Source: an uncultured Prolixibacteraceae bacterium
GTDB taxonomy: Bacteria > Bacteroidota > Bacteroidia > Bacteroidales > FEN-979
Direction of reading: 5' to 3'
Length of the DNA stretch: 64,000 nt
Assembly (NCBI GenBank): GCA_964616825.1
Contig: CAZTSX010000007.1
Span: 40,248-104,247, forward strand
Both the position numbers and the translations under genes were made by a program. Positions 4,748 to 18,863 of this stretch are shown here, one piece after another. Every line of letters begins with the position of its first letter. Position 1 is the stretch's first letter. The notes under the pieces were generated by a model. The model had not been told where the DNA came from. It ran no database searches and was given only the letters and a program-made list of their open reading frames with translations.

Positions 4748-5248
4748 TTAATTTTCCCGGAGAATGTGGTCGTCATACTCAATCTCAAAACTGAGTTTAT
4801 GCTTCGACTCCTCCTGAGCCAAGAGAAGAAACATCTCCCGCATTTCGGGCTGTTGAGCCCGGTCGGCCAGAGCCGTATAGAGTTTGAAAGCCGCTTTCTC
4901 TTTCTTCATAACCAGGATCAGGGCCTCTTCATAGGACATATCCGGCCTGTATTTCACATCCACAAGATAGTCAGAAAGTTTCATGTCTACTACTTTCTCG
5001 GTTCCAAAGACGGCAGCGCCATCCGCCTTCACCTCCATAAGCTTGGCTTTATGAGCCATCTCCTCTTTTGCAAACTCATGAAATGCCTTTTTAATACTCT
5101 CATTCTTAGACAGGTTCGCCAGTTTCAGATAAAAATCCACGGCAGCTTGCTCTTCCCCGATTGCAAAATCGAGTACATCATTGATGTTATTGAATTCTTT
5201 CATAGTTATATGTTTGTATTTGTTTGTTGCTGGTTTCTTGTCCCTCAT
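4748..5248 (-). CDS. ferritin-like / rubrerythrin-family diiron four-helix-bundle protein without a rubredoxin domain
   Basis: The helices EEQAAVDFY, AKEEMAHK, KKEKAAFKLY and AQEESKHK give an E...ExxH x2 pattern. No CxxC pair is present. The ATG at 5246-5248 overlaps the upstream stop codon (ATGA). An alternative start is Met16 at 5203. Confidence 0.7.
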   Translation of the reverse strand: MRDKKPATNKYKHITMKEFNNINDVLDFAIGEEQAAVDFYLKLANLSKNESIKKAFHEFAKEEMAHKAKLMEVKADGAAVFGTEKVVDMKLSDYLVDVKYRPDMSYEEALILVMKKEKAAFKLYTALADRAQQPEMREMFLLLAQEESKHKLSFEIEYDDHILREN

Positions 5249-8200
5249 ACCCTTAAACGTTCTTCAAATTCTTCTTCAAACCGCTTCACCAGGTAATCGC
5301 ATCCGTAATCAAATGAACGATTTAGGTTATCCTCCCTGGTATAAACCATCGCGAGGCTCTCTTCGGGCTGGTCCTCCTCAACATGCGGGAGCAACCGGAT
5401 GATCTCGCTAAAGACATCGTTGCGGCTTTCAAGGCCGTTCAGACCAAATCTTTTCAACAGTTCGATGAACTGCATGATGGAAGAGATCTCAATCCGGGAA
5501 GGCAATACAGGTTCAAATTCAAGAATAGCTTTTTGTGTATTTGAAAACGTGCCGCCAATCTCGGTGGGGAAGGAAGCCGGTAATATCAGGTCTGCTTCTT
5601 TTGCTGTGTCGGTCATAAAATAGTCCTGAACCACAATGAAGGGAATTTGTTTGATCAGAGAAGAATAGGTCTGGGTGGTGTCGCAACCAACCGGATCTTC
5701 ACCGAAAATAAACAGGTTCTTCATTATTTTTTTTGATAGCTTCAGTACCAGGCAATCCGCAACAATTCCCGGTATATCCTTAACATTCCACACATCTTTC
5801 AGTTTCTTGACATATGCTTCATCATCAAGAGGAATTCCTCCAACACCTGTACGACGACTGATTCCCATATCGAACAGGCCCTGAGAGTTATTCTTCTCCT
5901 TGAGTGTGATTAGTCCGTTGGCTGTTTTTCCGAGTTTACCGGTAATCATCGCCAGGTTGAACAGTTCCAGGGAGCTGTTGCTGGTGATCTCTTTTTCTGA
6001 GAAGATAGCGATGGCATTCATCTCAGTATTATACTCTTCAGCGAATTTCCTGATAACTTTTGGCAACACACCAGCATTGGATACCAATGTTGCAAAGTCT
6101 TCTTCCAAAATCTGAAGCTGGTACTCATTCTGTCCGATCACACGATCGCGGAGGAATAAATCGTTTTCTAACCCAAAGGTAAGCAGGTAGTGGTTAACCG
6201 CTTTGATGAAGTAATAATACGACTTCACGTGGATCACCTGATCGACCTTGTGAGTCATCGAACTCTCCTCCTTTTCGGTAACCAGAATTACCGGAATACC
6301 CTCTTTGGCCCGGGCATTATTCACCATGAATCCGGCCACAGCGTGATCCATGTTAATATCTGTCCCAATAAGGAAGATCTTCCCGGCTTTTCGGATGCTG
6401 TCAAGGGGTGCATTCTTTTGATGATTGAACCTGTATCCATCACCCCGTGTGAGGTAATGAAATGATCCAATATTGCCTGTCACGACTGCGGCACGTGCCA
6501 GTTTCTGGATCAGGTACATCTCTTCGTTTGTGAGCCTGGCTCCTGCAAAAAAACTATTTTCATCAGGCTTGACAGCACTGATTTTCTCAACGATTAACTT
6601 GAATGCTTCTTCAAAACTGATTTCCTTAAATTTTCCGTTAATCTTTTTTAACGGCCTGACTATCCGGCTCTTATCATTAAGATAAGCGTATCCAAAGCGA
6701 GGATATCTGCAGATATTGCCCTGTTGGTTCACCACTCCTTTGTTTCCGGAAACACTCATCACAAAGCCGTTGACCTGATTCAGCGTGATCGAACAGCCGA
6801 TTGAACAATAATTGCAGATTGCTTCGGATGGAGTTGTCTGAACCGGCCCGGGCTTGAACAGAACGTTCTCGGTGATCGCTCCTGTCGGACATGTTGAAAT
6901 ACACATCCCACATGATTCACAATTAGTATCCTGCAAGGCTTCTCCCATACTGGGTGAGACAAAAGTTTCAAAACCTCTGTTGACCAGTCCCAGGGCATTT
7001 GCGCCAACCACATCCCGGCAAATTCGGACGCAGCGTGAGCAAAGGATGCATTTATTGTTGTCGATCTCGATATATGGATGGCGGAAATCGACAGCATATT
7101 CGTTGAATTCACCAGCGAATCCTTTCTGGTCAGCATTGTATTCTGTCGAATACTTCTGCAGATCACAATTGAAAAAAGCTGTGCATCCGCATTCGAGGCA
7201 ACGTTGTGTTTCGTGAATTGCCACCACTTCATCAGCGTATCCCAACTCAACCTCATGGAAGTTCATCCGTTGATCAGCTTCCAGCACCGGCATCTCTTCG
7301 CGCTCCTGGGCAATAAACAGATCCTGATAATCTTCCTGAACTTGTGTCCTGAAATTATTGCGCCGGCTAATAAAGGGTTGTTTCAACGGTTTGATCTCAT
7401 CGCCCACCAGGTATTGGTGAGCACTATTTGAAGCAATTTTAGCCTGGGCTATCGCTTCGATGATGGTAGCCGGACCGGTAACGCCATCCCCTGCTGCAAA
7501 AACCGATGGAATACCGGTTTGTAATGTCTCTCTGTCGGCATCAATATCAGCCCACTTATTAACTTCAAGCTTATCGCCTTCGGTATTGGCGTTGATATCA
7601 TCGAGGAAATTCACGTCTGTCTTCTGACCAATGGCAGCCAGGACGTAATCTACGTTGAGTTCAAATTCAGATCCTTCGATTGGTACCGGCCTGCGTCGTC
7701 CCGAAGCATCAGGTTCTCCCAGCTTCATTTTAATACAGGTAACTGATTCCACCTCCCCTTTGTTATTCTTGTTGATCTTTTTAGGAAGTGTAAGAAAGAG
7801 ATATTCCACTCCTTCAAGTTTTGATTCATGGATCTCGATGGGATTGGCAGGCATCTCATTCTCTGTACGACGGTAAATCACATAGACGTTATCCGCCTTG
7901 CATCGCAATGATGTACGGCAACAGTCCATGGCCGTATTTCCTCCTCCGATGACAGCAATGGATTTGCCGCGGAAATCATACCGTTGTCCGGTCATCTCCA
8001 TGTTCTTCAGAAAATCGATCCCTGAGAAAACGTTTTCTGCATCATCCCCTTCACACCCTACACCTGTCCCAATCTGAGACCCGATGGTCAATATCACGGC
8101 ATCGTATTTATCTTTCAGCTCTTGATAGCTAAGGTTCTCTCCTAATTTCTGGTTGTAGAATATATTCATACCCAGATCGGTAATATTCTTCACCTCTTTG

Positions 8201-8952
8201 TCAAGGATATCATTCGGAAGCCTGTATTCAGGGATTCCGTAACGGAGCCAGCCTCCTGATTGGGGAGCCGCTTCAAAAATATCTACCTGGTGGCCCTCTA
8301 TCTGCAGGAAATAACCTGCTGAAAGACCGCCAGGTCCTGCACCGATCACGGCCACTTTTTTGCCAGTGGAGGGTTTGATCTCCGGAACAAACTTATCAGG
8401 GGACTCAAGGTCATAATCGGAAGCAAAGCGTTTCAGGTAATCGATACCTACGGGAGCGCTTTCATCCAGCAGGTTGCGACTGCATGCCACTTCACAGGGA
8501 CGAACACAAACCCGTCCGCAGATTGCCGGTAATGGGTTGGTCTCTTTGATGAGAGCCACAGCATCAGAATATAATCCCTTCTCAATCAGGGCGATATATC
8601 CCTGAACATCCACGCCGGCCGGACAGGTTTGCTTGCATGGCCCCAGACAGTCAGCATAGTGATTGCTCAACATCAGTTCCAACGCCATTTGCCGGGATTG
8701 ACGAATTGGTTCATTGTCGGTGACCACCTTCATCCCCTCTTTTATATGGGTGGAGCAAGCAGGCTGGTGTCCGCGCATTCCTTCTACTTCAACCACGCAT
8801 ATATAGCAAGAAGAGAATGGCTCTAGTCGTTCATCATGGCAAAGTGTTGGTATCTTGATGCCTTCCCGGTTAGCCACCTGGAGGATGGTTTCTCCCGGGT
8901 TTCCCTGAACGATCGTTCCGTTAAGAATTACGTTTACATCTTTTTGAGCCAT
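5245..8952 (-). CDS. 1235-aa NuoG-like iron-sulfur protein with an inserted GltD/NfnB-like FAD/NAD(P)H module and a C-terminal molybdopterin-oxidoreductase-like domain
   Basis: N-terminal [2Fe-2S] spacing C38-x10-C49-x2-C52-x13-C66. GltD-like part: CPAGVDV...GRVCVRPCEVAC, KKVAVIGAGPGGL, IAVIGGGNTAMD, GEPDASGRRRP and FAAGDGVTGP. Then come H580-x4-C-x2-C-x7-C, two CxxCxxCxxxC ferredoxin motifs and the MopB-type CNYCSIGC...GNIC cluster motif. The following ~500-aa domain has no obvious catalytic Cys or Sec. Confidence 0.7.
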   Translation of the reverse strand: MAQKDVNVILNGTIVQGNPGETILQVANREGIKIPTLCHDERLEPFSSCYICVVEVEGMRGHQPACSTHIKEGMKVVTDNEPIRQSRQMALELMLSNHYADCLGPCKQTCPAGVDVQGYIALIEKGLYSDAVALIKETNPLPAICGRVCVRPCEVACSRNLLDESAPVGIDYLKRFASDYDLESPDKFVPEIKPSTGKKVAVIGAGPGGLSAGYFLQIEGHQVDIFEAAPQSGGWLRYGIPEYRLPNDILDKEVKNITDLGMNIFYNQKLGENLSYQELKDKYDAVILTIGSQIGTGVGCEGDDAENVFSGIDFLKNMEMTGQRYDFRGKSIAVIGGGNTAMDCCRTSLRCKADNVYVIYRRTENEMPANPIEIHESKLEGVEYLFLTLPKKINKNNKGEVESVTCIKMKLGEPDASGRRRPVPIEGSEFELNVDYVLAAIGQKTDVNFLDDINANTEGDKLEVNKWADIDADRETLQTGIPSVFAAGDGVTGPATIIEAIAQAKIASNSAHQYLVGDEIKPLKQPFISRRNNFRTQVQEDYQDLFIAQEREEMPVLEADQRMNFHEVELGYADEVVAIHETQRCLECGCTAFFNCDLQKYSTEYNADQKGFAGEFNEYAVDFRHPYIEIDNNKCILCSRCVRICRDVVGANALGLVNRGFETFVSPSMGEALQDTNCESCGMCISTCPTGAITENVLFKPGPVQTTPSEAICNYCSIGCSITLNQVNGFVMSVSGNKGVVNQQGNICRYPRFGYAYLNDKSRIVRPLKKINGKFKEISFEEAFKLIVEKISAVKPDENSFFAGARLTNEEMYLIQKLARAAVVTGNIGSFHYLTRGDGYRFNHQKNAPLDSIRKAGKIFLIGTDINMDHAVAGFMVNNARAKEGIPVILVTEKEESSMTHKVDQVIHVKSYYYFIKAVNHYLLTFGLENDLFLRDRVIGQNEYQLQILEEDFATLVSNAGVLPKVIRKFAEEYNTEMNAIAIFSEKEITSNSSLELFNLAMITGKLGKTANGLITLKEKNNSQGLFDMGISRRTGVGGIPLDDEAYVKKLKDVWNVKDIPGIVADCLVLKLSKKIMKNLFIFGEDPVGCDTTQTYSSLIKQIPFIVVQDYFMTDTAKEADLILPASFPTEIGGTFSNTQKAILEFEPVLPSRIEISSIMQFIELLKRFGLNGLESRNDVFSEIIRLLPHVEEDQPEESLAMVYTREDNLNRSFDYGCDYLVKRFEEEFEERLRV

Positions 8953-8989
8953 CAGTTTCTTTTCTTGTTTTTTTGAGAATTCGGAGAGA

Positions 8990-10765
8990 TCATGTTAAAA
9001 CGATGGAATCAAACTTACACTTTGAGTAACAGATGCCACATTTCGTACAAAGATCCTGATGAATCAGATGTGGTTGCTTGCGCTCTCCTGTGATCGCATC
9101 GGAGGGGCAATTTTTCAGACAAACCAAACATCCGGTACACGCCTCCTGATCAACCGTATAGGTCAGTAAGGGCCGGCATACTTTCGCAGGGCATTTTTTG
9201 TCTTTTATATGTGCGATGTACTCATCCCTGAAATATTGAAGAGTCGTCAGAACGGGGTTAGGCGCTGTCTGGCCCAAACCACACAGGGAGTTATCTTTGA
9301 TCTGATATGACAGCTCCTCCAGTTTCTCAATATCTCCTTCTTTCCCTTTTCCATCAGAAATTCGTTCAAGGATCTCCAGCATTCTGATGGTTCCCATCCG
9401 ACAAAACGTACACTTCCCACATGACTCTTTGCACGTGAAATCGAGGAAAAACTTGGCGACATCCACCATGCAGGTACTCTCATCCATCACTACCATTCCT
9501 CCGGAACCCATAATGGCGCCCGTTGCATTTACGGAATCATAATCCACAATTGTATCAGAGAGATGTTCCGGTATACAACCTCCTGAAGGCCCGCCAAGTT
9601 GCACGGCTTTGAATTTTTTATCATCCTTGATGCCTCCTCCCAGTTTCATGATCACATCATTGATTGTGATGCCCATTGGGACTTCCACCAGCCCTGAATT
9701 TTTAATCTTTCCGGCCAGGGCAAAGACTTTGGTCCCTTTACTTCTTTCGGTTCCATAGCTGGCAAATGCGTCGCCTCCGTTAAGTATGATCCAGGGAATA
9801 TTAGCGAATGTTTCGACGTTATTAATATTAGTCGGATTGCCCCATAAACCTTTCTCAGCAGGAAACGGAGGGCGTCTGCGGGGCATCCCTCGTTCTCCTT
9901 CAACCGATGCGATCAGTGCAGTTTCTTCACCGCACACGAAAGCGCCAGCTCCCTCTTTAATGTAGATGTTGAAATTAAAATCTTCAATTCCGAAAGCATT
10001 GTTCCCTAGATACCCTCTATCACGGGCCTGATCAAGGGCAATATTAAGTCGTTTGATCGCAAGGGGATATTCAGCACGGCAATAGATCACACCACCAGTC
10101 GCATCAATGGAATAGGCGGCAATGATCATCCCTTCAATGACGGAATGAGGATCCCCTTCCAAAATGCTGCGATCCATGAAAGCCCCGGGATCGCCTTCGT
10201 CTGCATTACAGATGATATATTTTTCTTTCGACTTATACCCCCGGGCAAATTTCCATTTCATCCCTGTAGGGAATCCACCTCCACCCCGGCCCCGAAGTCC
10301 TGATTTGAGGATTGTTTCGATGACCAGATCGGGAGGGATCTTCTCATCGGCAATCTTCTGAACAGCTTTGTATCCTTTCCGGGCTTCATACTCTTCGATA
10401 GATTCGGGATCAATGTATCCGCAATTTCTCAACACGATCTTTACCTGCGCCGAAATAAATTTATTTTCCGATCCATCAAAGAGATCGGAGTAAACGATAT
10501 AATCACGAACAGGATCCTGTTGATTGATGTGTTTTTCTATAACTTCAATCGCCTGCTCTTCAGTAATGTCACCATACAAATAAGTTCCGGTATTGTCTAC
10601 AATCTCTACCAGAGGTTCCCTGTAACACATCCCGATGCAGCTGGTTTTCCGGAGGTTAAAATCCAGATTATCCGACTGCTTCAACGCTTTGATCTTCTCA
10701 TATGTCTTATTCGCGCCGGCGGCGATTCCACAGCTTCCAAGTCCGACGGTGACGGTAGTGTTCAT
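8990..10765 (-). CDS. NuoF/HydB-like NADH- and FMN-binding subunit (Bfu-type B subunit)
   Basis: Contains GLRGRGGGGFPTGMKWKF, ICNADEGDPGAFMDR and the CGKCTFCRMG cluster motif. It also has an N-terminal thioredoxin-like 2Fe-2S domain (GSCG...SCIGMC) and two C-terminal CxxCxxCxxxC(P) motifs. Confidence 0.85.
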   Translation of the reverse strand: MNTTVTVGLGSCGIAAGANKTYEKIKALKQSDNLDFNLRKTSCIGMCYREPLVEIVDNTGTYLYGDITEEQAIEVIEKHINQQDPVRDYIVYSDLFDGSENKFISAQVKIVLRNCGYIDPESIEEYEARKGYKAVQKIADEKIPPDLVIETILKSGLRGRGGGGFPTGMKWKFARGYKSKEKYIICNADEGDPGAFMDRSILEGDPHSVIEGMIIAAYSIDATGGVIYCRAEYPLAIKRLNIALDQARDRGYLGNNAFGIEDFNFNIYIKEGAGAFVCGEETALIASVEGERGMPRRRPPFPAEKGLWGNPTNINNVETFANIPWIILNGGDAFASYGTERSKGTKVFALAGKIKNSGLVEVPMGITINDVIMKLGGGIKDDKKFKAVQLGGPSGGCIPEHLSDTIVDYDSVNATGAIMGSGGMVVMDESTCMVDVAKFFLDFTCKESCGKCTFCRMGTIRMLEILERISDGKGKEGDIEKLEELSYQIKDNSLCGLGQTAPNPVLTTLQYFRDEYIAHIKDKKCPAKVCRPLLTYTVDQEACTGCLVCLKNCPSDAITGERKQPHLIHQDLCTKCGICYSKCKFDSIVLT

Positions 10766-10780
10766 GTTGATTTCGTTAGG

Positions 10781-11299
10781 TTAGTTTTTTTCTGCCAGCC
10801 TTATATTTTTTATCACTTTCACAGCCTGATTGCCTGTTAATTTGCCATAGGTCTGATCACCGACCATCATCACCGGGGCCAGGGAGCAACAGCCCAGACA
10901 AGCTACCGACTCCAGGGTAAATAGCCTGTCGTCTGTGGTCTCTCCGTCTTTGATCTTCATCGCCTCCTCGAGGGATTCGGTGAGTTCGTTCGCGTTTTGC
11001 ACGTGACAAGCAGTACCGTGGCATACCTTGACTATGTGTTTACCAACAGGGTTCAACCGGAACTGTGCATAGAAGGTAGCAACGCCATACATATCACTGA
11101 GAGGGATTCCCGTTTTGACGGAGATCTTTGTAAAAACAGCTTCAGGGATAAAACCATAAATATCCTGAGCCCCCTGCAATAGTGGGATCACATTTCCCTT
11201 TTTTCCGATATACTTTTCAATCAACGGATCAAGAAGTACGAGATCTACGTCAATGGATTCCTTCTTCTCCGTTTTCGCTTGTAATCGTGGAATGCGCAT
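10781..11299 (-). CDS. NuoE/HydC-like thioredoxin-like [2Fe-2S] subunit
   Basis: VCHGTACH...SVACLGCCSLAPVMMV is the typical 24-kDa subunit signature. Confidence 0.85.
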   Translation of the reverse strand: MRIPRLQAKTEKKESIDVDLVLLDPLIEKYIGKKGNVIPLLQGAQDIYGFIPEAVFTKISVKTGIPLSDMYGVATFYAQFRLNPVGKHIVKVCHGTACHVQNANELTESLEEAMKIKDGETTDDRLFTLESVACLGCCSLAPVMMVGDQTYGKLTGNQAVKVIKNIRLAEKN

Positions 11300-11408
11300 T
11301 AAATAATCTTATTAGAGTAACGACCTTTATTCATGCCAGGTCCTGGTTATCAAGATGTGCATGGAGTAATTTGTTTCGATGTTTGAGTCTGATTCCCTGT
11401 CCCCTGTA

Positions 11409-13211
11409 TCAATCTTTCCGCCTGGTTTTCATTTTCGACAGTTTCTTGTGAATTGCGTTGGCAGCAATTCTTCCGGCGCCCATGGCTTCAATCACAGTAG
11501 CGGAACCTGTTACAATGTCGCCGCCAGCATAGACAAACTCTTTTGAGGTTTCGTTTGTTTTTGGATCTACAACAATATTTCCCCACTTATTAAGCTCTAT
11601 ATCCGGAGCGGTCTGGAATATGATCGGATTGGCATCGTTACCAATAGCCACCACTGCCAGATCGACATCTAATACAAAGTTTGATCCTTCAATCGGAACC
11701 GGTCTTCTTCGGCCGGAATCATCCGGTTCTCCGAGTTTCATTTCGATACACTCCATTGCTTTGAGCGTATTGACATCTGTTCCGAGAAATCTGATTGGAT
11801 AGGTGAGCAACCGGAATTTCACTCCTTCTTCCTCTGCATGAATCACCTCTTCATGACGTGCAGGCAGCTCGGTTCTTGATCTGCGGTAGACGATGGTGAC
11901 TTCAGTTGAACCGGTTCGGATGGCCGTTCTGGCACAATCCATGGCTACATTCCCTCCTCCAATGACAGCGACACGGTTCCCTTTCGGTTTCGGTGTATCA
12001 TATTCCGGGAATCTATAAGCTTTCATCAGGTTCATCCGGGTTAGATATTCATTTGCGGAGAAGACATTCCCCAGGCTCTCCCCTTCAATGTGCATAAACT
12101 TGGGCAAACCGGCTCCCACCGCAATGAAAACTGCATCGAAGTGCTCGAGTAACTCGTCAACCGTATTGATCTTTCCGATAACCTGGTTCAGTTCGATCCT
12201 GACACCCATCTCTTTCAGGTAATTGATCTCAAACTGCACAATGGATTTTGGAAGCCTGAACTCCGGGATTCCATATGTAAGTACGCCACCCGTTTCATGA
12301 AATGCTTCAAAGATCGTCACGGCATATCCGAGGAGTTGCAAGTCGGCTGCAACGGTCAGGCCGGCTGGTCCTGAGCCTACAACAGCGATTCTTTTTCCCT
12401 GTTTTTTCTTGATCACCGGGATGCTTACCAGGTCCATCTTCCGTTCCCAGTCTGCCACAAAACGCTCCAGGTTACCAATCGCGACCGGCGTATCCTTGAT
12501 GCCAACGATACAGATCTCCTCACATTGGTTTTCCTGCGGACATACACGGCCACAAATAGCAGGCAGTACATTTCGCTCCTTTACTTTCTTGATGGATTCG
12601 TCAAACTTCTCTTCAGCAATCAACCTGATAAACTCAGGGATATCTATATTAACCGGACATCCATCGACACATTTCGGTTTTTTACATTGCAGGCAACGGC
12701 CGGCTTCCAACAACGCCAGTTCAGAAGTATAGCCATAAGGGACCTCCTGGTAATTTGCTGTTCTTAGCTTCTGATCCTGAGCAGGCATCTCCTGGCGGGG
12801 TATTTTTAGTTTGATTTTTCGTTCATCTGCCCTGGTCAGGCCATGCCACTCACAGCCGTATTTCATGCAGATGTAAAAGGGAATCAACTTTGAATAGCTG
12901 GAGATCGTTATCTCTCCCAGTGATGATCCACATTCGCCACATTTCTTTTCAGGTATGACAAGGTTGGTTTTGCAAAACGGACATGCAAGTCCGGTTAGAA
13001 TCTTCCCTTCTTCGATCGGAATTGATGATGCAACCTCAAATACATCAAGGTATGGGCTAAGTTTAAGCTGAAAATCGGAACCGTTATAGCTAGCATCAAC
13101 GATGATAGTTTGGGCCTCTTTATCTTCAACATTAAAGCTTTGGTTGCAATGCGGGCAGTAGGTGTTTAGAAAGGTTTTGTACTTTAAGTACTTTACATCT
13201 TGCTCATTCAT
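11409..13211 (-). CDS. nfnB: NfnB / GltD-family NADPH-dependent oxidoreductase beta subunit with a ~135-aa N-terminal Cys-rich ribbon module
   Basis: Contains RCLQCKKPKCVDGCP, GRVCPQENQCEEIC, AVVGSGPAGL, AVIGGGNVAMD and GEPDDSGRRRP. The N-terminal extension has C19xxC22, C77xxC80, C91xxC94 and C115x4C120xxH123. Confidence 0.8.
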   Translation of the reverse strand: MNEQDVKYLKYKTFLNTYCPHCNQSFNVEDKEAQTIIVDASYNGSDFQLKLSPYLDVFEVASSIPIEEGKILTGLACPFCKTNLVIPEKKCGECGSSLGEITISSYSKLIPFYICMKYGCEWHGLTRADERKIKLKIPRQEMPAQDQKLRTANYQEVPYGYTSELALLEAGRCLQCKKPKCVDGCPVNIDIPEFIRLIAEEKFDESIKKVKERNVLPAICGRVCPQENQCEEICIVGIKDTPVAIGNLERFVADWERKMDLVSIPVIKKKQGKRIAVVGSGPAGLTVAADLQLLGYAVTIFEAFHETGGVLTYGIPEFRLPKSIVQFEINYLKEMGVRIELNQVIGKINTVDELLEHFDAVFIAVGAGLPKFMHIEGESLGNVFSANEYLTRMNLMKAYRFPEYDTPKPKGNRVAVIGGGNVAMDCARTAIRTGSTEVTIVYRRSRTELPARHEEVIHAEEEGVKFRLLTYPIRFLGTDVNTLKAMECIEMKLGEPDDSGRRRPVPIEGSNFVLDVDLAVVAIGNDANPIIFQTAPDIELNKWGNIVVDPKTNETSKEFVYAGGDIVTGSATVIEAMGAGRIAANAIHKKLSKMKTRRKD

Positions 13212-13223
13212 AGTAGTATGGGT

Positions 13224-14048
13224 TTAATGGATCGAAAACAACAAACAATCTTTCTCTTCCTTTAGATAGATGGAGTTACGTTTCATCAGTTCATCAAAAT
13301 TCACCTGGTGTCCATCAAAGTCAGGTCCGTCCACACAGGCAAACTTCACTTTATCATCAATGGTGACACGGCATCCCCCACACATCCCTGTTCCATCAAT
13401 CATAATGGGATTCAGGCTGACGATTGTGGGTGTGTCAAACTTCTTTGTAAGGCCACAAACTGTTTTCATCATGATCAGAGGTCCAATTGCATAGACCAAC
13501 TTGATGTCATTTCGTTCCTGGAGATATTTTTCAAGCGGCTGTGTCACAAATCCCCGGGTGCCATAGCTTCCGTCATCGGTTGTCACCACCAATTCATCAC
13601 TGATCATTTCCATCTCTTTCTCCAGTATGACCAGGTCCTTATCCCTGGCTCCGATAATGCTGATCACATAATTGCCGGCTTCCTTGAACGCTTTGGCGAC
13701 ATGATGCAAAATGGCCACACCGGTACCTCCTCCAACCATCACAACGGTTCCTATCTTCTCAACTTCTGCAGGTCGTCCGAGCGGACCAGCAATATCCCGG
13801 ATAAAATCGCCCTCATTCAATGAGCGCATCAATGCAGTAGTTTTTCCTACCACCTGAAAGATGATCGTAATAATCCCTGCGAACTCATCTTTATCAGCAA
13901 TAGTCATCGGAATGCGTTCACCGGTTTCGTTTACTCGTAAGATAATAAATTGTCCTGCCTGCGCTTTTTTTGCAATTTTCGGAGCAATAATGTCAAATCG
14001 TACAATAGTACCTTTAGCTAACTCTTGTTTTCTGCTTATCTGAAACAT
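13224..14048 (-). CDS. nfnA: NfnA / PyrK-like ferredoxin-NADP reductase-type alpha subunit
   Basis: FNR-like fold motifs RIPMTIAD and MVGGGTGVA, with a C-terminal CGGCRV...FACVDGPDF [2Fe-2S] motif. It sits 12 nt upstream of nfnB. Confidence 0.8.
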   Translation of the reverse strand: MFQISRKQELAKGTIVRFDIIAPKIAKKAQAGQFIILRVNETGERIPMTIADKDEFAGIITIIFQVVGKTTALMRSLNEGDFIRDIAGPLGRPAEVEKIGTVVMVGGGTGVAILHHVAKAFKEAGNYVISIIGARDKDLVILEKEMEMISDELVVTTDDGSYGTRGFVTQPLEKYLQERNDIKLVYAIGPLIMMKTVCGLTKKFDTPTIVSLNPIMIDGTGMCGGCRVTIDDKVKFACVDGPDFDGHQVNFDELMKRNSIYLKEEKDCLLFSIH

Positions 14049-14066
14049 AGTATATTTAGTTAATTG

Positions 14067-14942
14067 TTACCATTCCAAGCTATCCTCCAGTTTGATATCC
14101 TGAAGGTCTTCATCACTCAATCCATGCCATTTGCAGCCTTTTTTCGAGCAAAGATAGAAATTAATCATTTTTGTTCTGGCACTGATAAATATTCTTGCGA
14201 TGGGTGAACCACACTCTTCACATGCCTTGTTTGCTGAAATCAAACTGGTGTCACAATGTGGGCAGGAAATATCAGTCACCGGCTTATCTTCCTGAAGATA
14301 CACTGTTGATTCTGAGGTAAATACATTCATATAAGGACTCAAGATCAGAATACCTGATTTCCCATCGGTTGTGATATTTAGCTTCAGGATATCGTGTTCG
14401 ATCAGGCTTTTAAGGCAGTGGGGGCAGTAGGACAACAGGAAGGCTCCGGATTCGATCATCTCTTTCTTCTCATCTTTTTCTGCAGCAGGAGGAGCCGGTT
14501 TTGTTGCCATGGTTTTCCGATGCTCATTGGTGTATTTTCCGGCTAACCCGTAATCCTGATATAATTTACTCAATGCCAGGGAAACATCATCGAATTCTAC
14601 AAAATGATTTCTACACCCGCTTCTTGAACAGATACTGACCCTTCCTCCCATATCCAGGATAAACGGAACCAGTGGGGCGCTACAAATAGAACATGCATTT
14701 TCAGATGTGATCTCAGTCTTACAGTGTGGACATGAAAACTGTGCAATCAGATCAGGGGAGAGTGGAATACTACACCGGTAATTATAACTCCCCCAAATAG
14801 AACTCAGAAAAATGAATGAAGTTTGTTTCTTGGCCTTTATTCCCAGTTTTATACTGGGCTTCTTATCTACAAGTTCTTGATCATCAATGAGGGAGGTATT
14901 GCAGTATGGACAGTTAACAATAAGGGTAATAAAATCATACAT
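14067..14942 (-). CDS. uncharacterised protein made of two tandem 8-Cys/1-His ribbon modules
   Basis: Module 1 has C11xxC14, C71xxC74, C84xxC87 and C105x4C110xxH113. Module 2 has C173xxC176, C227xxC230, C241xxC244 and C265x4C270xxH273. The pattern matches the NfnB N-terminus, and a Pro/Ala/Lys-rich linker joins the two modules. Confidence 0.7.
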   Translation of the reverse strand: MYDFITLIVNCPYCNTSLIDDQELVDKKPSIKLGIKAKKQTSFIFLSSIWGSYNYRCSIPLSPDLIAQFSCPHCKTEITSENACSICSAPLVPFILDMGGRVSICSRSGCRNHFVEFDDVSLALSKLYQDYGLAGKYTNEHRKTMATKPAPPAAEKDEKKEMIESGAFLLSYCPHCLKSLIEHDILKLNITTDGKSGILILSPYMNVFTSESTVYLQEDKPVTDISCPHCDTSLISANKACEECGSPIARIFISARTKMINFYLCSKKGCKWHGLSDEDLQDIKLEDSLEW

Positions 14943-14985
14943 GGCCTGCTCACTTTTCTTTATTCTGGTAACATCTCAGGAGTTG

Positions 14986-14993
14986 CAAAATTA
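14986..14993 (-). promoter_or_regulatory. candidate -7 promoter box (TAATTTTG) for the redox gene string
   Basis: Plus-strand caaaatta, which reads TAATTTTG on the minus strand. It lies 44 nt upstream of the ATG at 14942. Confidence 0.4.
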
Positions 14994-15017
14994 CAATAAA
15001 ATATCTTACAGATTGGA

Positions 15018-18000
15018 TTATCCACCCCATGTAATCACAGAAATTCGTTTTCTTCCATCCATTCTTACGACAAGTGGTTTTACAAAAGAGGAGACAGTAA
15101 AATAGTTATATTCGTAAGTGTGGTTTTGTTGTTTAAGAATATCGTACCTGATAAAGCTTTTTGAGATCTCAGGCTGGACGCACAGATACCCGACATTCAT
15201 GGATGTAACATTATGAAAGAAATGCGATCCGGATGAGGCATCCAGCGGAAAACCTTCCAGGCTGGTCTCCACAATCACCCTGGCATTGGATATTTGAGGC
15301 CATGTAACCGGGATCCCTATCCACCGGTCCCTGGTCCCCCACCGTCCCGGTCCGATCAAAATATACTTTTTGTTCCGGCTGATCATATCGGCATTGATCT
15401 TCTCTATCTCATCAGCCATTGCAACGGTTTGAGATTTGTCAAATGTGTCGGGATCAACATAGACGACATCATAGATGTTATCGATGATACCATTACCCAT
15501 CTCGCGCTCTGAAAAGAGTAAAATTTGCTCCTTCCGGATCTTTTTCATGTTGATCCTGTAATCCTTGGTATTCCCGATCATCGGCTTAACCTGGAGGAGA
15601 TAAAACGTGGCTCTGCCATGCTGATCCTTGGTCAGGTCTACTGCAAACTCGATCTCAACCGGTGAACCCAGCGCCTCTTTCACCACATCAAGAACGACTT
15701 CGATGGTTTTAGCAAGTGGAATATAATTATATTTCAGGATGTCGGCAAAATTGATCACCCGCGGGCCGGCTTTCGTCAGTCCGGGTATGATCTGGTTATC
15801 ATCAGTACTAAAAACCGATGCAATATGGTTGATAGAGCCATGATGTTCAGCTTCGTCGATATCCAGGGTCCTCAATCCGGCTTCTTCACCATCAAGGAGG
15901 TTCAGGTCCTCTTTCTTCAAATCAACAGCATAAAAACGAACCTGACTCCGTTTTAATTGAGTATGTGCGGAACTGATCTCCAGATTTGGATACTGAGGTG
16001 AAAAGCGGAATGTTTTCTCACCTTCAACAACATACTGGCCAAGTCCAAGTGCAATTACAGCAACCCCCTCTTCCGGTTTCATGTGTCCATAGGGATAATA
16101 GTTGTATGAATGAGCAACACCACTGATATGCGGATAGAAAACATCCTCATGTTGGTTTCCTACCACCTCCTGAATCACAACAGCCATTTTTTCCTGGTCA
16201 ATCCGGTAATGCACAGCTTCAAAATATTTTTTCGCTGTTGGAGAATATATCGATGCATATACCAGTTTGATTGCATTTTTTAACTGTTCAAGGCGAACAC
16301 TCGGATCGGGATGGTTATTGGGGATCATGTAGGTTTCAAAGATACCGGCGAAAGGCTGGTTCAGGGAATCTTCAAATAATCCGGAAGAACGGATTGCCAG
16401 GGGTTTGTTGATGTGCTTGATGATCAGTTTTAATTTACTGATTAAGGCTTCAGACTGCTTCCCTTCGATAAACCATCTCTTTAGCTTTTGATAATCGGTC
16501 TCCAACATCACTTTTTCACGCAATTGATTCCGGTCCATGAAAAAATCAAACTCATCTGTTCCGATTATCGAGGTGACCGGTGTCTGGATATTTATATTAG
16601 GAATATGGTGGGAGAAGTCGTAGTTATATATAACTGTGTTACTAAAGGCAAGACCTCGTCCTTTGCCCCCAAGAGTACCTTCCGTCAGGCTAAGGATATT
16701 AGTAGCATCAGTGATAGCCGATTCCTCAAATGGGATTACTTTACCCTTATCCTGTTCGTTCCTGAAATGCGAGATCACCGAGACCAGATACTCGCGCAAA
16801 CTGGCAGCATCTTTAAAATCAGCGACTTTGGCGGGATTCAGGATCTTTGCTGCCTGGATTTCACTCCGTGCCATCAACCAAAGGGAGAAGTGATCTTTGT
16901 GGGCATGGAAAAGAAGTGACTCCTCCGGTATCGTTTTTAATTTGTCTTCAAACTCTTTCAGCGACCTGGCCTGATCAATTTGCTTTCCTTCTTTGTCGCG
17001 GTAGATAAAGTTCCCAAAACCAAGGTAGCGGGTTATGAAACTTCTGAAATCGGCTAGCAGGGTGTCTGAATTTTTGTTGATGAAAGCAGTCTTCATATCA
17101 TCCGCCCAGGAGGTGTTTGAATCGTCGAACGACTGCAGAACGATCGGGAGATCACGGGACTCTTTGCGAATTTGGTTGACAAGAGTGAATCCGGCATTAT
17201 CATTGAGCTTTCCGTCCTTCTTAAACTTGACGTCAGAGATCAGGCAGAGGATAAATTCGTTGTACTTATGAAAGATATATATAGCCTCCTCATAGGTGGA
17301 AGCAAGTAAGATTTTTGGGCGGGCTTTCAATCGGAGAATACGGTACAACTCATCCGTAGTGACATCTTCAATGATATGCTTCGTCTGCTCCAAAACAATG
17401 TTGTAGAGCATAGGGAGGTAGAGCGAGTAATATTGCGGCGAATCTTCAACCAGCAGAATTACCCTGACCATCCCAAGTTTGGTATCATTCTCTATATTGA
17501 TCTTATCTTCCAGGTAATTGATCATGGCAAAAAAGATCCGGGTATCCCCGTTCCAGATGAAGATGCGATCTATCCAGTTTAGCCGTTCTGGCTCCTCTTC
17601 GAAAAGGGCGACGTCGATGTTGCTGTTTAAGAGTAGAAATACAGGGATGTATTGAAATGCAGCCTTAACCTGCTTGCTAAGCTCAACCGGAAATTCCTTG
17701 TCGACACCAAGCATAATAATCACCAGGTCATAGTGCTTGGCATTCAACTGTTCCATGACTTCTTCTTTTGAAGAAACCCCTGTAATACGAGGCATTGTGC
17801 TCAGGCTCAATTGATAATACTCACCCAGCACATGTTCTGAAAAGCGACCCTCCTTTTCAATGCTGTAAGCATCGTACAGATTAGCCACAAGCAGGATTTC
17901 ACGAACCTTGAACGGCATTAAGTCGTGGTAAAGATCCCTGTTGGCATTCGTTCGGTTGAGAAATGACTGCAACAAGTGGCGACTGGAGGTTTCCTGTTCC

Positions 18001-18863
18001 TGGCTCGTTGTTGCCCTTTTTTTCAGGATCGCTTTTCCTTTGATGGAGTTTAAATATCCTGAAATGAGATTAGCCAAGTTGACGATCAGTACCCTCTCCT
18101 CTTCAAGAAAAGGCCCTTCAGAAGCTTCCGGAAATCCTTTCAAATAACAGATATCAATAAATCCTTCCTGGTTATCAATGGTCTCAAATTTCTGAACCTG
18201 CTGCCATTGTGTTTCGCGAAAATTCGGAGTCTGCACAACTATGTTTCCATATCTTATTCTGCTGGCAGTAAACTCCGGATATTGCCATGCACGTGGAAGT
18301 ATCAGGCATATTTGACGCAGAGACTCTTCAGGCGAGGTTCCCGTACGAAGGATGTTTGTAGTCTGATTGATCGCATCGAGTTCTTTCAGATGTTCCCTTG
18401 TGACATACCTGCCTTCCCGACCTTTCATGGCATTCAGATATCCCTCAATCAGGCTGCTAAGGGTATTGAGCAGGCTTTGCTCTTCCTTCAGAAAAGGACC
18501 TTGGTCGGCTTCCGCGAATTTTTTCGTGTAAAAGATCTCAATTGAGCAAACCAGGTTATCAATTGTAGTAAAAACCTGCTCTTGCTTCCACTCCGTCTCA
18601 ACGAACTGGTCACTGACAAACTCCATCTCATCGATTCGTATCCGAGCAACAGTATATCTGGGATATTGCCAGGCTTTCGGCAGAATCTTACAGATCTTTT
18701 GAAGGGTATCTGAAACAGGCTTTCCCTTTTTAATAATTGCAGTCGTTTCATTGATAGCTGCCAGTTCCTTTAGTCGTTCACGATTATCGTAAAGGAGCTT
18801 ATTAAAGTCAGCTTTATCAACATGAGTTTTGCTGTTCCGTTTTCTGTTCTCTTTCCCAGGCAT
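15018..18863 (-). CDS. multidomain sensor enzyme: 2 x GAF-like repeat, pseudo-receiver, receiver, PEP/pyruvate-binding (PPDK/PEP synthase N-terminal ATP-grasp) domain and an unassigned C-terminal domain
   Basis: An internal 129-aa repeat covers residues ~27-147 and ~156-276 (LKEL.AIN.T...ILP.AWQYP...GPFL.EE). The first receiver-like segment has DLVIIMLG, so no acceptor Asp. The second has VEDS...LISDVKF. The TLGGKGRGLAF nucleotide-binding loop is typical of the PPDK_N family. Confidence 0.6.
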   Translation of the reverse strand: MPGKENRKRNSKTHVDKADFNKLLYDNRERLKELAAINETTAIIKKGKPVSDTLQKICKILPKAWQYPRYTVARIRIDEMEFVSDQFVETEWKQEQVFTTIDNLVCSIEIFYTKKFAEADQGPFLKEEQSLLNTLSSLIEGYLNAMKGREGRYVTREHLKELDAINQTTNILRTGTSPEESLRQICLILPRAWQYPEFTASRIRYGNIVVQTPNFRETQWQQVQKFETIDNQEGFIDICYLKGFPEASEGPFLEEERVLIVNLANLISGYLNSIKGKAILKKRATTSQEQETSSRHLLQSFLNRTNANRDLYHDLMPFKVREILLVANLYDAYSIEKEGRFSEHVLGEYYQLSLSTMPRITGVSSKEEVMEQLNAKHYDLVIIMLGVDKEFPVELSKQVKAAFQYIPVFLLLNSNIDVALFEEEPERLNWIDRIFIWNGDTRIFFAMINYLEDKINIENDTKLGMVRVILLVEDSPQYYSLYLPMLYNIVLEQTKHIIEDVTTDELYRILRLKARPKILLASTYEEAIYIFHKYNEFILCLISDVKFKKDGKLNDNAGFTLVNQIRKESRDLPIVLQSFDDSNTSWADDMKTAFINKNSDTLLADFRSFITRYLGFGNFIYRDKEGKQIDQARSLKEFEDKLKTIPEESLLFHAHKDHFSLWLMARSEIQAAKILNPAKVADFKDAASLREYLVSVISHFRNEQDKGKVIPFEESAITDATNILSLTEGTLGGKGRGLAFSNTVIYNYDFSHHIPNINIQTPVTSIIGTDEFDFFMDRNQLREKVMLETDYQKLKRWFIEGKQSEALISKLKLIIKHINKPLAIRSSGLFEDSLNQPFAGIFETYMIPNNHPDPSVRLEQLKNAIKLVYASIYSPTAKKYFEAVHYRIDQEKMAVVIQEVVGNQHEDVFYPHISGVAHSYNYYPYGHMKPEEGVAVIALGLGQYVVEGEKTFRFSPQYPNLEISSAHTQLKRSQVRFYAVDLKKEDLNLLDGEEAGLRTLDIDEAEHHGSINHIASVFSTDDNQIIPGLTKAGPRVINFADILKYNYIPLAKTIEVVLDVVKEALGSPVEIEFAVDLTKDQHGRATFYLLQVKPMIGNTKDYRINMKKIRKEQILLFSEREMGNGIIDNIYDVVYVDPDTFDKSQTVAMADEIEKINADMISRNKKYILIGPGRWGTRDRWIGIPVTWPQISNARVIVETSLEGFPLDASSGSHFFHNVTSMNVGYLCVQPEISKSFIRYDILKQQNHTYEYNYFTVSSFVKPLVVRMDGRKRISVITWGG

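Follow-up and report, generated by a model that had tools for sequence, protein, structure and literature searches.

The stretch of DNA analysed here (the window) comprises 64,000 nucleotides from an uncultured Prolixibacteraceae bacterium (assembly GCA_964616825.1, contig CAZTSX010000007.1, positions 40,248 to 104,247 of the forward strand) and carries, on its minus strand, a gene cluster in which a cysteine-rich module of about 125 residues, each copy with eight cysteines and one histidine, occurs three times. Two copies, M1 (residues 1–135) and M2 (residues 161–291), make up a free protein of 291 residues (14067–14942), and the third, M3, forms residues 1–135 of a 600-residue NfnB (11409–13211), whose gene begins 12 nt downstream of nfnA. 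A sequence-only reading of this DNA had proposed such an arrangement of two copies in the free protein and one on NfnB, which the positions of the cysteines and histidines and the blastp homology between the copies now bear out. The three-copy module is real, conserved and so far unnamed. The module-bearing part of the cluster is as follows.

14067..14942, minus strand: free two-module protein, 291 residues, with a type A module, a flexible linker and a type B module (open reading frame; 636 homologues at E<=1e-3)
14538..14942, minus strand: M1, type A module, residues 1–135 (AlphaFold2 predicted local distance difference test score, pLDDT, about 90; 180.8 bits with the type A hidden Markov model, HMM, against 53.2 with that of type B)
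14442..14549, minus strand: linker between the modules, residues 132–167, predicted to be disordered (pLDDT <50; family alignment consensus mostly without a majority residue)
14070..14462, minus strand: M2, type B module, residues 161–291 (43% identical to M3; type B HMM 193.5 bits against 67.6 for type A)
13224..14048, minus strand: NfnA, 274 residues, FAD/NAD-binding, with a [2Fe-2S] cluster (PRK06222 396.7 bits, cut-off 220; Pfam DHODB_Fe-S_bind and NAD_binding_1)
12807..13211, minus strand: M3, type B module fused to the N-terminus of NfnB, residues 1–135 (no counterpart in solved NfnB structures)
11409..12806, minus strand: NfnB core, with a short linker, a Fer4_20 domain carrying two [4Fe-4S] clusters and the FAD/NADPH domains (TIGR01316 562.5 bits, cut-off 471.75; 4ylf_B, E 3e-164)

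The candidate ligands are C11, C14, C71, C74, C84, C87, C105, C110 and H113 in M1, which has an additional, non-conserved cysteine (C57); C173, C176, C227, C230, C241, C244, C265, C270 and H273 in M2; and C19, C22, C77, C80, C91, C94, C115, C120 and H123 in M3 (NfnB numbering). Their spacing is CxxC, 50–56 residues, CxxC, 9–10 residues, CxxC, 17–20 residues and CxxxxCxxH. The pattern first proposed holds in its overall spacing apart from two features of M1: the stretch ahead of the last motif is 17 residues long instead of about 20, and the third knuckle, CSICSAP, has no glycine. In pairwise blastp comparisons M2 and M3 are 43% identical (E 1.4e-35), M1 and M2 28% (E 4e-15) and M1 and M3 25% (E 7e-8); with E values of 1e-35 to 7e-8, the three copies are truly homologous and have more in common than a cysteine skeleton. 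A six-frame HMM scan found no fourth copy in the window.

The NfnB core starts only at about residue 140–150, as judged by Fer4_20 (residues 151–259 in Pfam), TIGR01316 (149–589) and the alignment with 4ylf_B (140–591), and residues 1–135 are therefore a genuine extension ahead of the canonical protein, as had been supposed.

Family assignment, fold and metal sites

Sequence and profile searches of Pfam, NCBIfam and the PDB found no named family for the module and returned only generic matches to zinc ribbons and C2H2 knuckles. In Pfam, the 291-residue protein gave a borderline match to Zn_ribbon_6 (PF07191; 25.5 bits against a cut-off of 25) and scored below the cut-off for DZR (PF12773; 24.3 against 27.3) and Zn_ribbon_3 (PF13248; 24.9 against 27), while the NfnB extension had no Pfam match better than E 0.1; the NCBIfam search of the module gave nothing useful. 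Among PDB entries, the module reached methionyl-tRNA synthetase (MetRS; 1rqg, E 0.035), YfgJ (2jne, E 0.004) and trivial C2H2 knuckles.

AlphaFold2, run on the 291-residue protein with a 79-sequence alignment, predicted two confident all-beta domains joined by the disordered linker, with strands at both sides of each of the four knuckles per module, around hairpins. A Foldseek search of the PDB with this two-module model gave nothing better than E 0.1, the top matches being the zinc-ribbon repeats of topoisomerase I and RPB9. The earlier view of the module as zinc-ribbon-like agrees with these weak matches (Zn_ribbon_6, DZR, the MetRS knuckles, YfgJ and topoisomerase I), which are the only ones, and with an all-beta prediction that places the knuckles at hairpins. 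Its failure to assign a named family is likewise upheld by the Pfam, NCBIfam, PDB and profile searches, which together with Foldseek place the module in no well-characterised family. The rubredoxin-like CxxCG signature that had been suggested does not hold in general; it is found only in the third knuckle of M2 and M3, and not in M1 or most relatives.

In an alignment of 21 distant modules (19–57% identity to M1) all eight cysteines are invariant and the histidine nearly so, the latter being kept at its position in 95 of the 112 complete motifs of the representative set. Invariance of all eight cysteines is consistent with a pair of Cys4 metal sites in each module. Judged by the order of the predicted strands, site 1 would be formed by knuckles 1 and 2 (C11/C14 and C71/C74 in M1) and site 2 by knuckle 3 and the CxxxxC motif (C84/C87 and C105/C110 in M1), and the near-invariant histidine would adjoin site 2. 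On the reading tentatively favoured below, the metal would most likely be structural zinc.

Double zinc ribbons (PF07191, with E. coli YfgJ, 2JNE; PF12773) resemble the module in being small domains with paired CxxC knuckles flanking beta-hairpins and with two metal sites, predicted ones in the module, and YfgJ is the best profile match among solved structures apart from C2H2 knuckles, yet this match spans only about 35 residues. The module is twice as long, with a three-stranded insert of 50–56 residues between knuckles 1 and 2, and it has the CxxxxCxxH last motif and conserved non-cysteine motifs of its own; function is not common to both. The likeness to the zinc-knuckle insertion of MetRS (PF09334; P. 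abyssi 1RQG; E 0.035, 23.7 bits) is local, over CPxC-x9-CxxC-x(~17)-C, and covers only model positions 108–190 of 391, that is, the insertion without the catalytic domain; it concerns a structural motif alone and not function, the module having no synthetase domain.

Rubredoxin and the rubredoxin-like domain of rubrerythrin resemble the module in building Cys4 sites, predicted ones in the module, from two CxxC knuckles and in their association with NAD(P)H-linked redox enzymes, joined in this cluster by a rubrerythrin-family protein devoid of such a domain, but differ from it in knuckle sequences and spacings, and the net charge of the module is variable. No rubredoxin match (PF00301) was listed by Pfam at E<=1 for the 291-residue protein or NfnB, and the knuckle signature is not that of rubredoxin, as knuckles 1 and 2 are CPxC without a following glycine and the pairs stand 50–56 and 17–20 residues apart. 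A 2x[4Fe-4S] ferredoxin was rejected, the CxxCxxCxxxCP motif being present in none of the three modules and no Fer4 match falling inside them. HypA (PF01155), the Ni metallochaperone of hydrogenases, is like the module in its Cys4 zinc-type motif and in its vicinity to hyp and hydrogenase genes, and is non-homologous: Pfam scores the match at 17.9 bits (cut-off 28.9), hhalign gives a probability of 6% against the HypA of locus L166, and none of the module proteins examined starts with MHE. Locus L166 also has a gene for a canonical HypA beside the module.

Family size, subtypes and fusions

A profile search covering 1.84 billion representatives at a threshold of E<=1e-3 gathered the module family into 304 clusters at 50% identity; homologues of the 291-residue protein, found at the same threshold, are nearly all 285–293 residues long. 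The best 150 of the 304 clusters include 102 single stand-alone modules, some of which may be gene fragments, 19 two-module proteins and 29 fusions to other domains. A word-index search with the NfnB extension alone recovered gene fragments only.

Two sub-HMMs, whose seeds overlap with the sequences scored, split the module cleanly into two ancient subtypes, A and B. Type A includes M1, most single modules, all NuoE fusions and the CBS fusions, and is marked by the motifs LSSxYGSY, GG and CSRxGCKNH; type B, to which M2, M3 and the NfnB fusions belong, has a three-residue insertion and the motif GCxWHG. The order is A then B in 14 of 18 two-module representatives. Pfam analysis of the fusions placed the module C-terminal to a NuoE-like 2Fe-2S_thioredx domain in eight cases and N-terminal on NfnB in two; it further lies N-terminal to CBS pairs (three cases), after an adenylate cyclase with AAA_16 (one case) and after a Mur-ligase protein, which we take to be PgsB/CapB-like. 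The gene context of the CBS-fusion locus was uninformative. The isoelectric points of module proteins range from 5.0 to 8.7 and their net charge varies widely. Diffusible ferredoxins and rubredoxins are typically acidic, and this spread argues weakly against a ferredoxin-like carrier and decides nothing.

Fusions of NuoE with a type A module (NuoE::A) form a large family, in which the 120 best matches listed for representative P0278 are all 278–382 residues long and cover 85–97% of the fusion; the named sources among these 120 are Phycisphaerae, Sedimentisphaerales or candidate division LCP-89. AlphaFold2 predicted two confident domains for a NuoE::module fusion, joined by a linker (residues 173–178) with pLDDT <50, and a predicted template modelling score (pTM) of 0.50; the disordered linker and this pTM suggest that the module in NuoE::A is tethered rather than docked in a fixed position. 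The modules of the free protein, with their own disordered linker, likewise have the look of tethered domains. In a Foldseek search with this model only the NuoE part was matched (about 150 columns), including solved BfuC/NuoE subunits.

One stand-alone type B protein (P0175, 136 residues; locus L177, 8001–8411) lies between genes for a GH92 glycosidase and an M1-family peptidase, far from redox genes, and none of the explanations weighed below accounts for its context.

The conserved gene cluster

The remaining genes of the cluster, and the gene next upstream, are listed below.

10781..11299, minus strand: StnA/BfuC-like protein, 172 residues, NuoE-like thioredoxin-like [2Fe-2S] (Pfam 2Fe-2S_thioredx, E 2.8e-49)
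8990..10765, minus strand: StnB/BfuB-like protein, with a NuoF-like FMN/NADH domain, an N-terminal thioredoxin-like stretch and a C-terminal 2x[4Fe-4S] domain (Pfam Complex1_51K, NADH_4Fe-4S, Fer4 and 2Fe-2S_thioredx)
5245..8952, minus strand: StnC/BfuA-like protein, 1235 residues, with Fer2_4, GltD-like and NuoG/FdhF-like domains (9bov_A, E 1e-233; S. ovata StnC, 8oh5_C, E 6e-213)
4748..5248, minus strand: cysteine-less rubrerythrin-family protein, 166 residues, encoded by the last gene of the cluster (Pfam Rubrerythrin, E 2e-13)
15018..18863, minus strand: PPDK_N-domain protein, 1281 residues, 75 nt upstream and co-directional, a possible functional partner (Pfam PPDK_N, E 1e-37)

The three genes downstream of nfnB encode a complete StnABC (Nfn-Bfu) subunit set, as judged by Pfam domains and by the best PDB matches (C. 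saccharolyticus NfnABC and S. ovata StnC), with the architecture described for such enzymes (PMC10482914). NfnB passes the curated TIGR01316 cut-off and aligns over its full length with a solved NfnB (4ylf_B, residues 140–591), and both NfnAB and StnABC appear by sequence to be ordinary members of their enzyme families. The start codon (ATG) of the rubrerythrin-like gene overlaps the stop codon of stnC; its product contains no cysteine and is thus without the rubredoxin-like Fe(Cys)4 domain that classical rubrerythrin has.

Conservation was examined in the best 80 loci from 315 species genomes encoding a two-module relative; the scans used closer alignments, biased towards two subfamilies, and related loci are not phylogenetically independent. 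All 80 are in metagenome-assembled genomes (MAGs) of Bacteroidales, Ignavibacteria or Chlorobiota, and the window itself is 98% identical to the marine Bacteroidetes MAG NIOZ-UU56. The conserved order is that of the protein with a type A followed by a type B module (A-B protein), NfnA, NfnB with its type B module (B::NfnB), StnA, StnB, StnC and the cysteine-less rubrerythrin-like protein. With at least 3 kb of downstream sequence, nfnA directly follows the A-B gene in 49 of 61 loci, and M3 is in frame with the NfnB core, without a stop codon, in 57 of 59 related loci, its full motif of eight cysteines and histidine being kept in 58 of the 59. An apparent insertion in the L002 module proved to be a scaffold gap of Ns. 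How regularly NfnB carries the extension, and whether the free protein goes with it, had been left as a question by the sequence-only reading: the extension is present on all 48 of 48 co-directional NfnB proteins, but in one separate lineage nfnA and B::nfnB have no free A-B gene adjoining them.

Among loci with at least 9.5 kb of downstream sequence, stnABC continues the cluster in 23–24 of 45; in two loci it directly follows the A-B gene and in three it precedes it. Of 17 related loci that could be assessed, 14 close the cluster with the rubrerythrin-like gene. Directly upstream of the A-B gene, the PPDK_N-domain gene is found in 30 of 57 loci, including most of those in which nfnA does not follow. 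Five loci without a co-directional nfnA have a canonical, module-less nfnB-nfnA pair and a HydA-like/NuoF-like operon convergent next door.

Two AhpC/Redoxin (peroxiredoxin-type) genes lie between nfnB and stnA in locus L005 (11803–12944) and a hemerythrin gene lies upstream of nfnA in L092, which together give the cluster an oxidative-stress theme. The Ignavibacteriae cluster L003 has three 23S_rRNA_IVP (PF05635) genes in or beside it: upstream of the two-module gene, between nfnB and stnA, and between stnB and stnC (5037–5399, 11738–12115 and 14664–15050).

Type A modules in other organisms

Single type A modules occur in at least five distinct arrangements, the loci being drawn from a few related subfamilies and non-independent. 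Hydrogenase, hyp, NuoEFG-like or Hdr genes are present in 23 of 24 single-module loci of at least 6 kb. The type A gene lies immediately upstream of hoxF (a NuoE and NuoF fusion), followed by hoxU, hoxY and hoxH, in L175, L171 and L161; between hypA or hypB and hypE in L103 and L166; directly after hdrA-mvhD-mvhG-mvhA in L114; after an mrp-like cluster and hycI in L161; and before an fdhA-like gene in L157. Representatives P0166, P0176 and P0278 are on contigs too short for context.

In the Planctomycetota and LCP-89 operons that encode NuoE::A (L094 9001–15439, L095 9001–15399 and L096 9001–15507), the order is the same in three of three: NuoE::A, a NuoF::GltD fusion (about 1080 residues), a Fer2_4/Fer4_7 protein (about 228 residues) and a Glu_synthase-domain protein (about 529 residues). 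This operon may encode a NuoEF-linked, possibly bifurcating, glutamate synthase.

Directly after the free type A gene of L154 lies a gene for a PpsR-type kinase/pyrophosphorylase (PF03618; 8552–9352). Together with the PPDK_N gene of the window, it may hint at a link to regulation of the phosphoenolpyruvate/pyruvate dikinase type, or may be coincidence.

Relation to ferredoxin sites and known systems

Flavin-based electron bifurcation has its model systems in the Nfn and Bfu enzymes. Canonical NfnAB, or NfnSL (T. maritima 4YLF, P. furiosus 5JCA), are clear homologues of the NfnA and NfnB encoded here, but the solved NfnB proteins start at the equivalent of residues 133–140 and hence lack the module, and no third subunit has been described for them. 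The module extension is not among the four known Nfn architectures listed in a survey (PMC6405883). StnABC and Nfn-Bfu enzymes (S. ovata 8OH5, C. saccharolyticus 9BOV, T. sibiricus 9N5U) agree in subunit architecture with the downstream genes, which, unlike the published StnABC, sit in a conserved cluster with NfnAB, the A-B protein and the rubrerythrin-like gene; published BfuC (about 150 residues) lacks the module. The module is absent from all solved NfnB, BfuC and NuoE structures matched in the PDB and Foldseek searches, and a literature search found no paper on the module, the NfnB N-terminal extension or a NuoEF-linked glutamate synthase.

For NfnB, the predicted binding place of ferredoxin is close to the distal [4Fe-4S] cluster (PMC6405883), which we assign to the Fer4_20 domain, starting about 15 residues past M3. 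In Nfn-Bfu, a mobile C-terminal domain of the NuoE-like subunit gates bifurcation, with ferredoxin bound between it and the BfuB ferredoxin-like domain (PMC12018979). It is this very mobile domain that carries the module in the NuoE::A fusions, and both fusion points, the N-terminus of NfnB and the C-terminus of NuoE, adjoin these ferredoxin sites.

The window holds, in one conserved cluster (5245–14942, minus strand), an NfnAB of the NfnSL type and a StnABC of the Nfn-Bfu type, which catalyse the same overall reaction; a survey of Thermococcaceae found NfnAB or Nfn-Bfu, never both (PMC9304861).

Interpretation

Relatives of the module travel with genes for hydrogenases and related redox enzymes, and the module is probably an unrecognised accessory part of these enzymes. 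The sequence-only reading, which had suggested two Zn or two Fe(Cys)4-type centres per module and a role as an electron entry or exit point or as a docking domain, is supported in part; it had not noted the two subtypes, the fusions to NuoE-like subunits, the free relatives near [NiFe]-hydrogenase genes, or the complete StnABC set and the rubrerythrin-like gene after it. The reading that we favour, although tentatively and with considerable doubt, is that of a docking or tether domain, stabilised by zinc and without catalytic activity, within such complexes at their ferredoxin-facing end. Two Cys4 metal sites would hold the small all-beta module together, and flexible linkers would attach it to soluble NAD(P)H/ferredoxin-linked iron-sulfur flavoenzymes. 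In the cluster, type B would be built into NfnB just ahead of the domain carrying two [4Fe-4S] clusters, and the free A-B protein would serve as the third subunit of a variant, ZnR-NfnAB. Its B module might associate with the B module borne by NfnB or with NfnAB itself, and its A module might dock on the NuoE-like subunit StnA, as type A is elsewhere fused to NuoE/BfuC-like subunits or adjoins hoxF. NfnAB, StnABC and possibly the rubrerythrin-like protein would thereby be held together, or access to their ferredoxin sites controlled. Beside the homology, the invariant cysteines, the two subtypes, the fusions and the conserved gene order, all of them observed, the protein–protein contacts, the identity of the metal and the pairing of the cysteines are what we infer.

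In favour of a docking domain are the similarity to zinc ribbons only, the flexible linkers, the variable charge, the non-redox fusions and the clean mapping of subtypes to partners, as well as the fusions to NfnB and NuoE-like subunits next to ferredoxin sites and the conserved gene order. A binding domain also suits the module better than an electron carrier in view of the CBS pairs, the adenylate cyclase with AAA_16 and the PgsB-like Mur ligase found as fusion partners of type A. Several points weigh against it. Cys4 sites of this kind can bind iron instead of zinc, and a redox role would be just as compatible with eight invariant cysteines and nearly all-redox neighbours. It is hard to see what thermodynamic purpose the coupling of NfnAB to StnABC would serve, since both catalyse the same overall reaction, and about half of the long-flank loci have the A-B gene and nfnAB with no stnABC nearby. 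The lineage that has B::NfnB with no free A-B gene alongside and the stand-alone type B protein in an unrelated neighbourhood do not suit it either, and AlphaFold2 gave no confident docking of type A on the fused NuoE domain (pTM 0.50). Moreover, the related loci on which the argument draws are phylogenetically non-independent.

The same invariant cysteines and redox neighbours (23 of the 24 long single-module loci, with hydrogenase, hyp, NuoEFG or Hdr genes) could instead indicate that the Cys4 sites bind iron, as in rubredoxin, or a small Fe-S centre, and give electrons an additional way in or out at the ferredoxin end of NfnB, of BfuC/NuoE-like subunits and of Hox and Mvh hydrogenases, passing electrons from NAD(P)H or ferredoxin, in the operon of the window, to the cysteine-less rubrerythrin-like protein as a peroxide or oxygen reductase. 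The position of the fusion points beside ferredoxin sites is consistent with such a relay, as are the retention of the rubrerythrin-family gene at the cluster end (14 of 17 assessable loci), the peroxiredoxin genes in the L005 operon, the hemerythrin gene upstream in L092 and the proposal of a rubrerythrin-linked class of Bfu enzymes (PMC9304861). We nevertheless regard the relay as doubtful, though it deserves to be taken seriously: Pfam gives no rubredoxin match at E<=1, knuckles 1 and 2 lack the glycine of CxxCG and the spacings are unlike those of rubredoxin, isoelectric points are variable and often basic, and a carrier does not readily account for the CBS, cyclase and PgsB fusions. A centre at the potential given for rubredoxin, near 0 mV (PMC9304861), would moreover be expected to short-circuit bifurcation if set beside the low-potential branch, and the type A hydrogenase clusters have no rubrerythrin-like gene apart from one weak match in a single-module locus, among the 80 loci of the single-module scan. 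The fullest version of this idea seems unlikely: that the modules are iron-binding relay stations wiring NfnAB and StnABC to the rubredoxin-less rubrerythrin-like protein, the seven-gene cluster encoding one supercomplex that reduces peroxide or oxygen with NAD(P)H and ferredoxin, and that type A serves Hox and Mvh/Hdr [NiFe]-hydrogenases and Bfu-type enzymes in general as an electron port or subunit, the NuoEF-linked glutamate-synthase-like system among them.

That the module might be an assembly or maturation factor, helping to insert or protect Ni-Fe or Fe-S centres and later captured as a fused domain in NfnB and NuoE-like subunits, is suggested by hyp or hycI genes in 18 of the 24 long single-module loci, by the module gene lying between hypA/hypB and hypE in L103 and L166, and by the Joint Genome Institute (JGI) label 'HypA/HybF' on some relatives; but hyp genes usually adjoin structural hydrogenase genes anyway, and the module gene in L103 and L166 runs opposite to them. 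The similarity to HypA is negligible by profile comparison and falls short of the Pfam cut-off, and the N-terminal Ni motif characteristic of HypA, with which the HypA of L166 begins (MHE), is missing from the module proteins examined. Since permanent fusion to Ni-free enzymes (NfnB and the NuoE-GltD systems) would also be unusual for a chaperone, and the window contains no hydrogenase or hyp genes, we consider this role quite unlikely. A regulatory switch or sensor, which through its Zn-thiolate sites or the conserved surface of type A would respond to redox state or to a small ligand by either gating the ferredoxin site or signalling via CBS or cyclase partners, would draw on the fusions of type A to CBS pairs and to adenylate cyclase with AAA_16, on the strong conservation of LSSxYGSY, GG and CSRxGCKNH across free and fused type A, on the oxidative-stress genes in the operon and on the linked upstream PPDK_N-domain gene; these are all circumstantial, most copies stand in enzyme operons without signalling output, and we hold this to be improbable. 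Highly improbable is a zinc ribbon that binds nucleic acid and regulates the operon in transcription or translation, for which one could cite the JGI auto-annotation of relatives as 'ssDNA-binding Zn-finger/Zn-ribbon topoisomerase 1', the weak structural top match to the zinc-ribbon repeats of topoisomerase I and the free gene being first in its operon. Those Foldseek matches are not significant (E at least 0.1), the modules are not uniformly basic, and the covalent fusion to NfnB and NuoE-like subunits makes such a role unlikely.

A conserved extra domain or subunit beside the ferredoxin sites is new relative to the structures and surveys compared, with potential consequences for the choice of partners, gating, protection from oxygen or the formation of supercomplexes. 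The module appears to be assembled from known zinc-ribbon elements and yet to fall in no described family, the NfnAB and StnABC associated with it being of known kinds. No Pfam or NCBIfam model claims this large family of 304 clusters (315 species genomes for the two-module form alone), and one cluster unites two enzymes reported as mutually exclusive within Thermococcaceae (PMC9304861). For the electron-bifurcation and hydrogenase fields this is a testable lead; were the fullest version of the iron relay correct, type A would be a previously unrecognised electron port or subunit of [NiFe]-hydrogenases and Bfu-type enzymes. Ignavibacterium album has been cultured, and a relative is present in a genome assembly of this species, so that experiments should be feasible.

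Other observations in the window

In the 1281-residue protein encoded upstream (15018–18863, minus strand), the PPDK_N ATP-grasp domain lies at residues 730–1108, preceded by two N-terminal repeats of about 140 residues; there is also a weak receiver-like stretch, and a phosphohistidine domain was not detected in the protein. A promoter and terminator scan gave counts equal to the shuffled expectation, with a consensus that is unsuited to Bacteroidota.

Beyond the end of the cluster, an open reading frame encoding 889 residues (1262–3931, plus strand) has an N-terminus that, judged by eye, resembles a signal peptide, and its C-terminal tail, also judged by eye, resembles a type IX secretion sorting domain of Bacteroidota; these two ends would be consistent with a Bacteroidota origin of the window.

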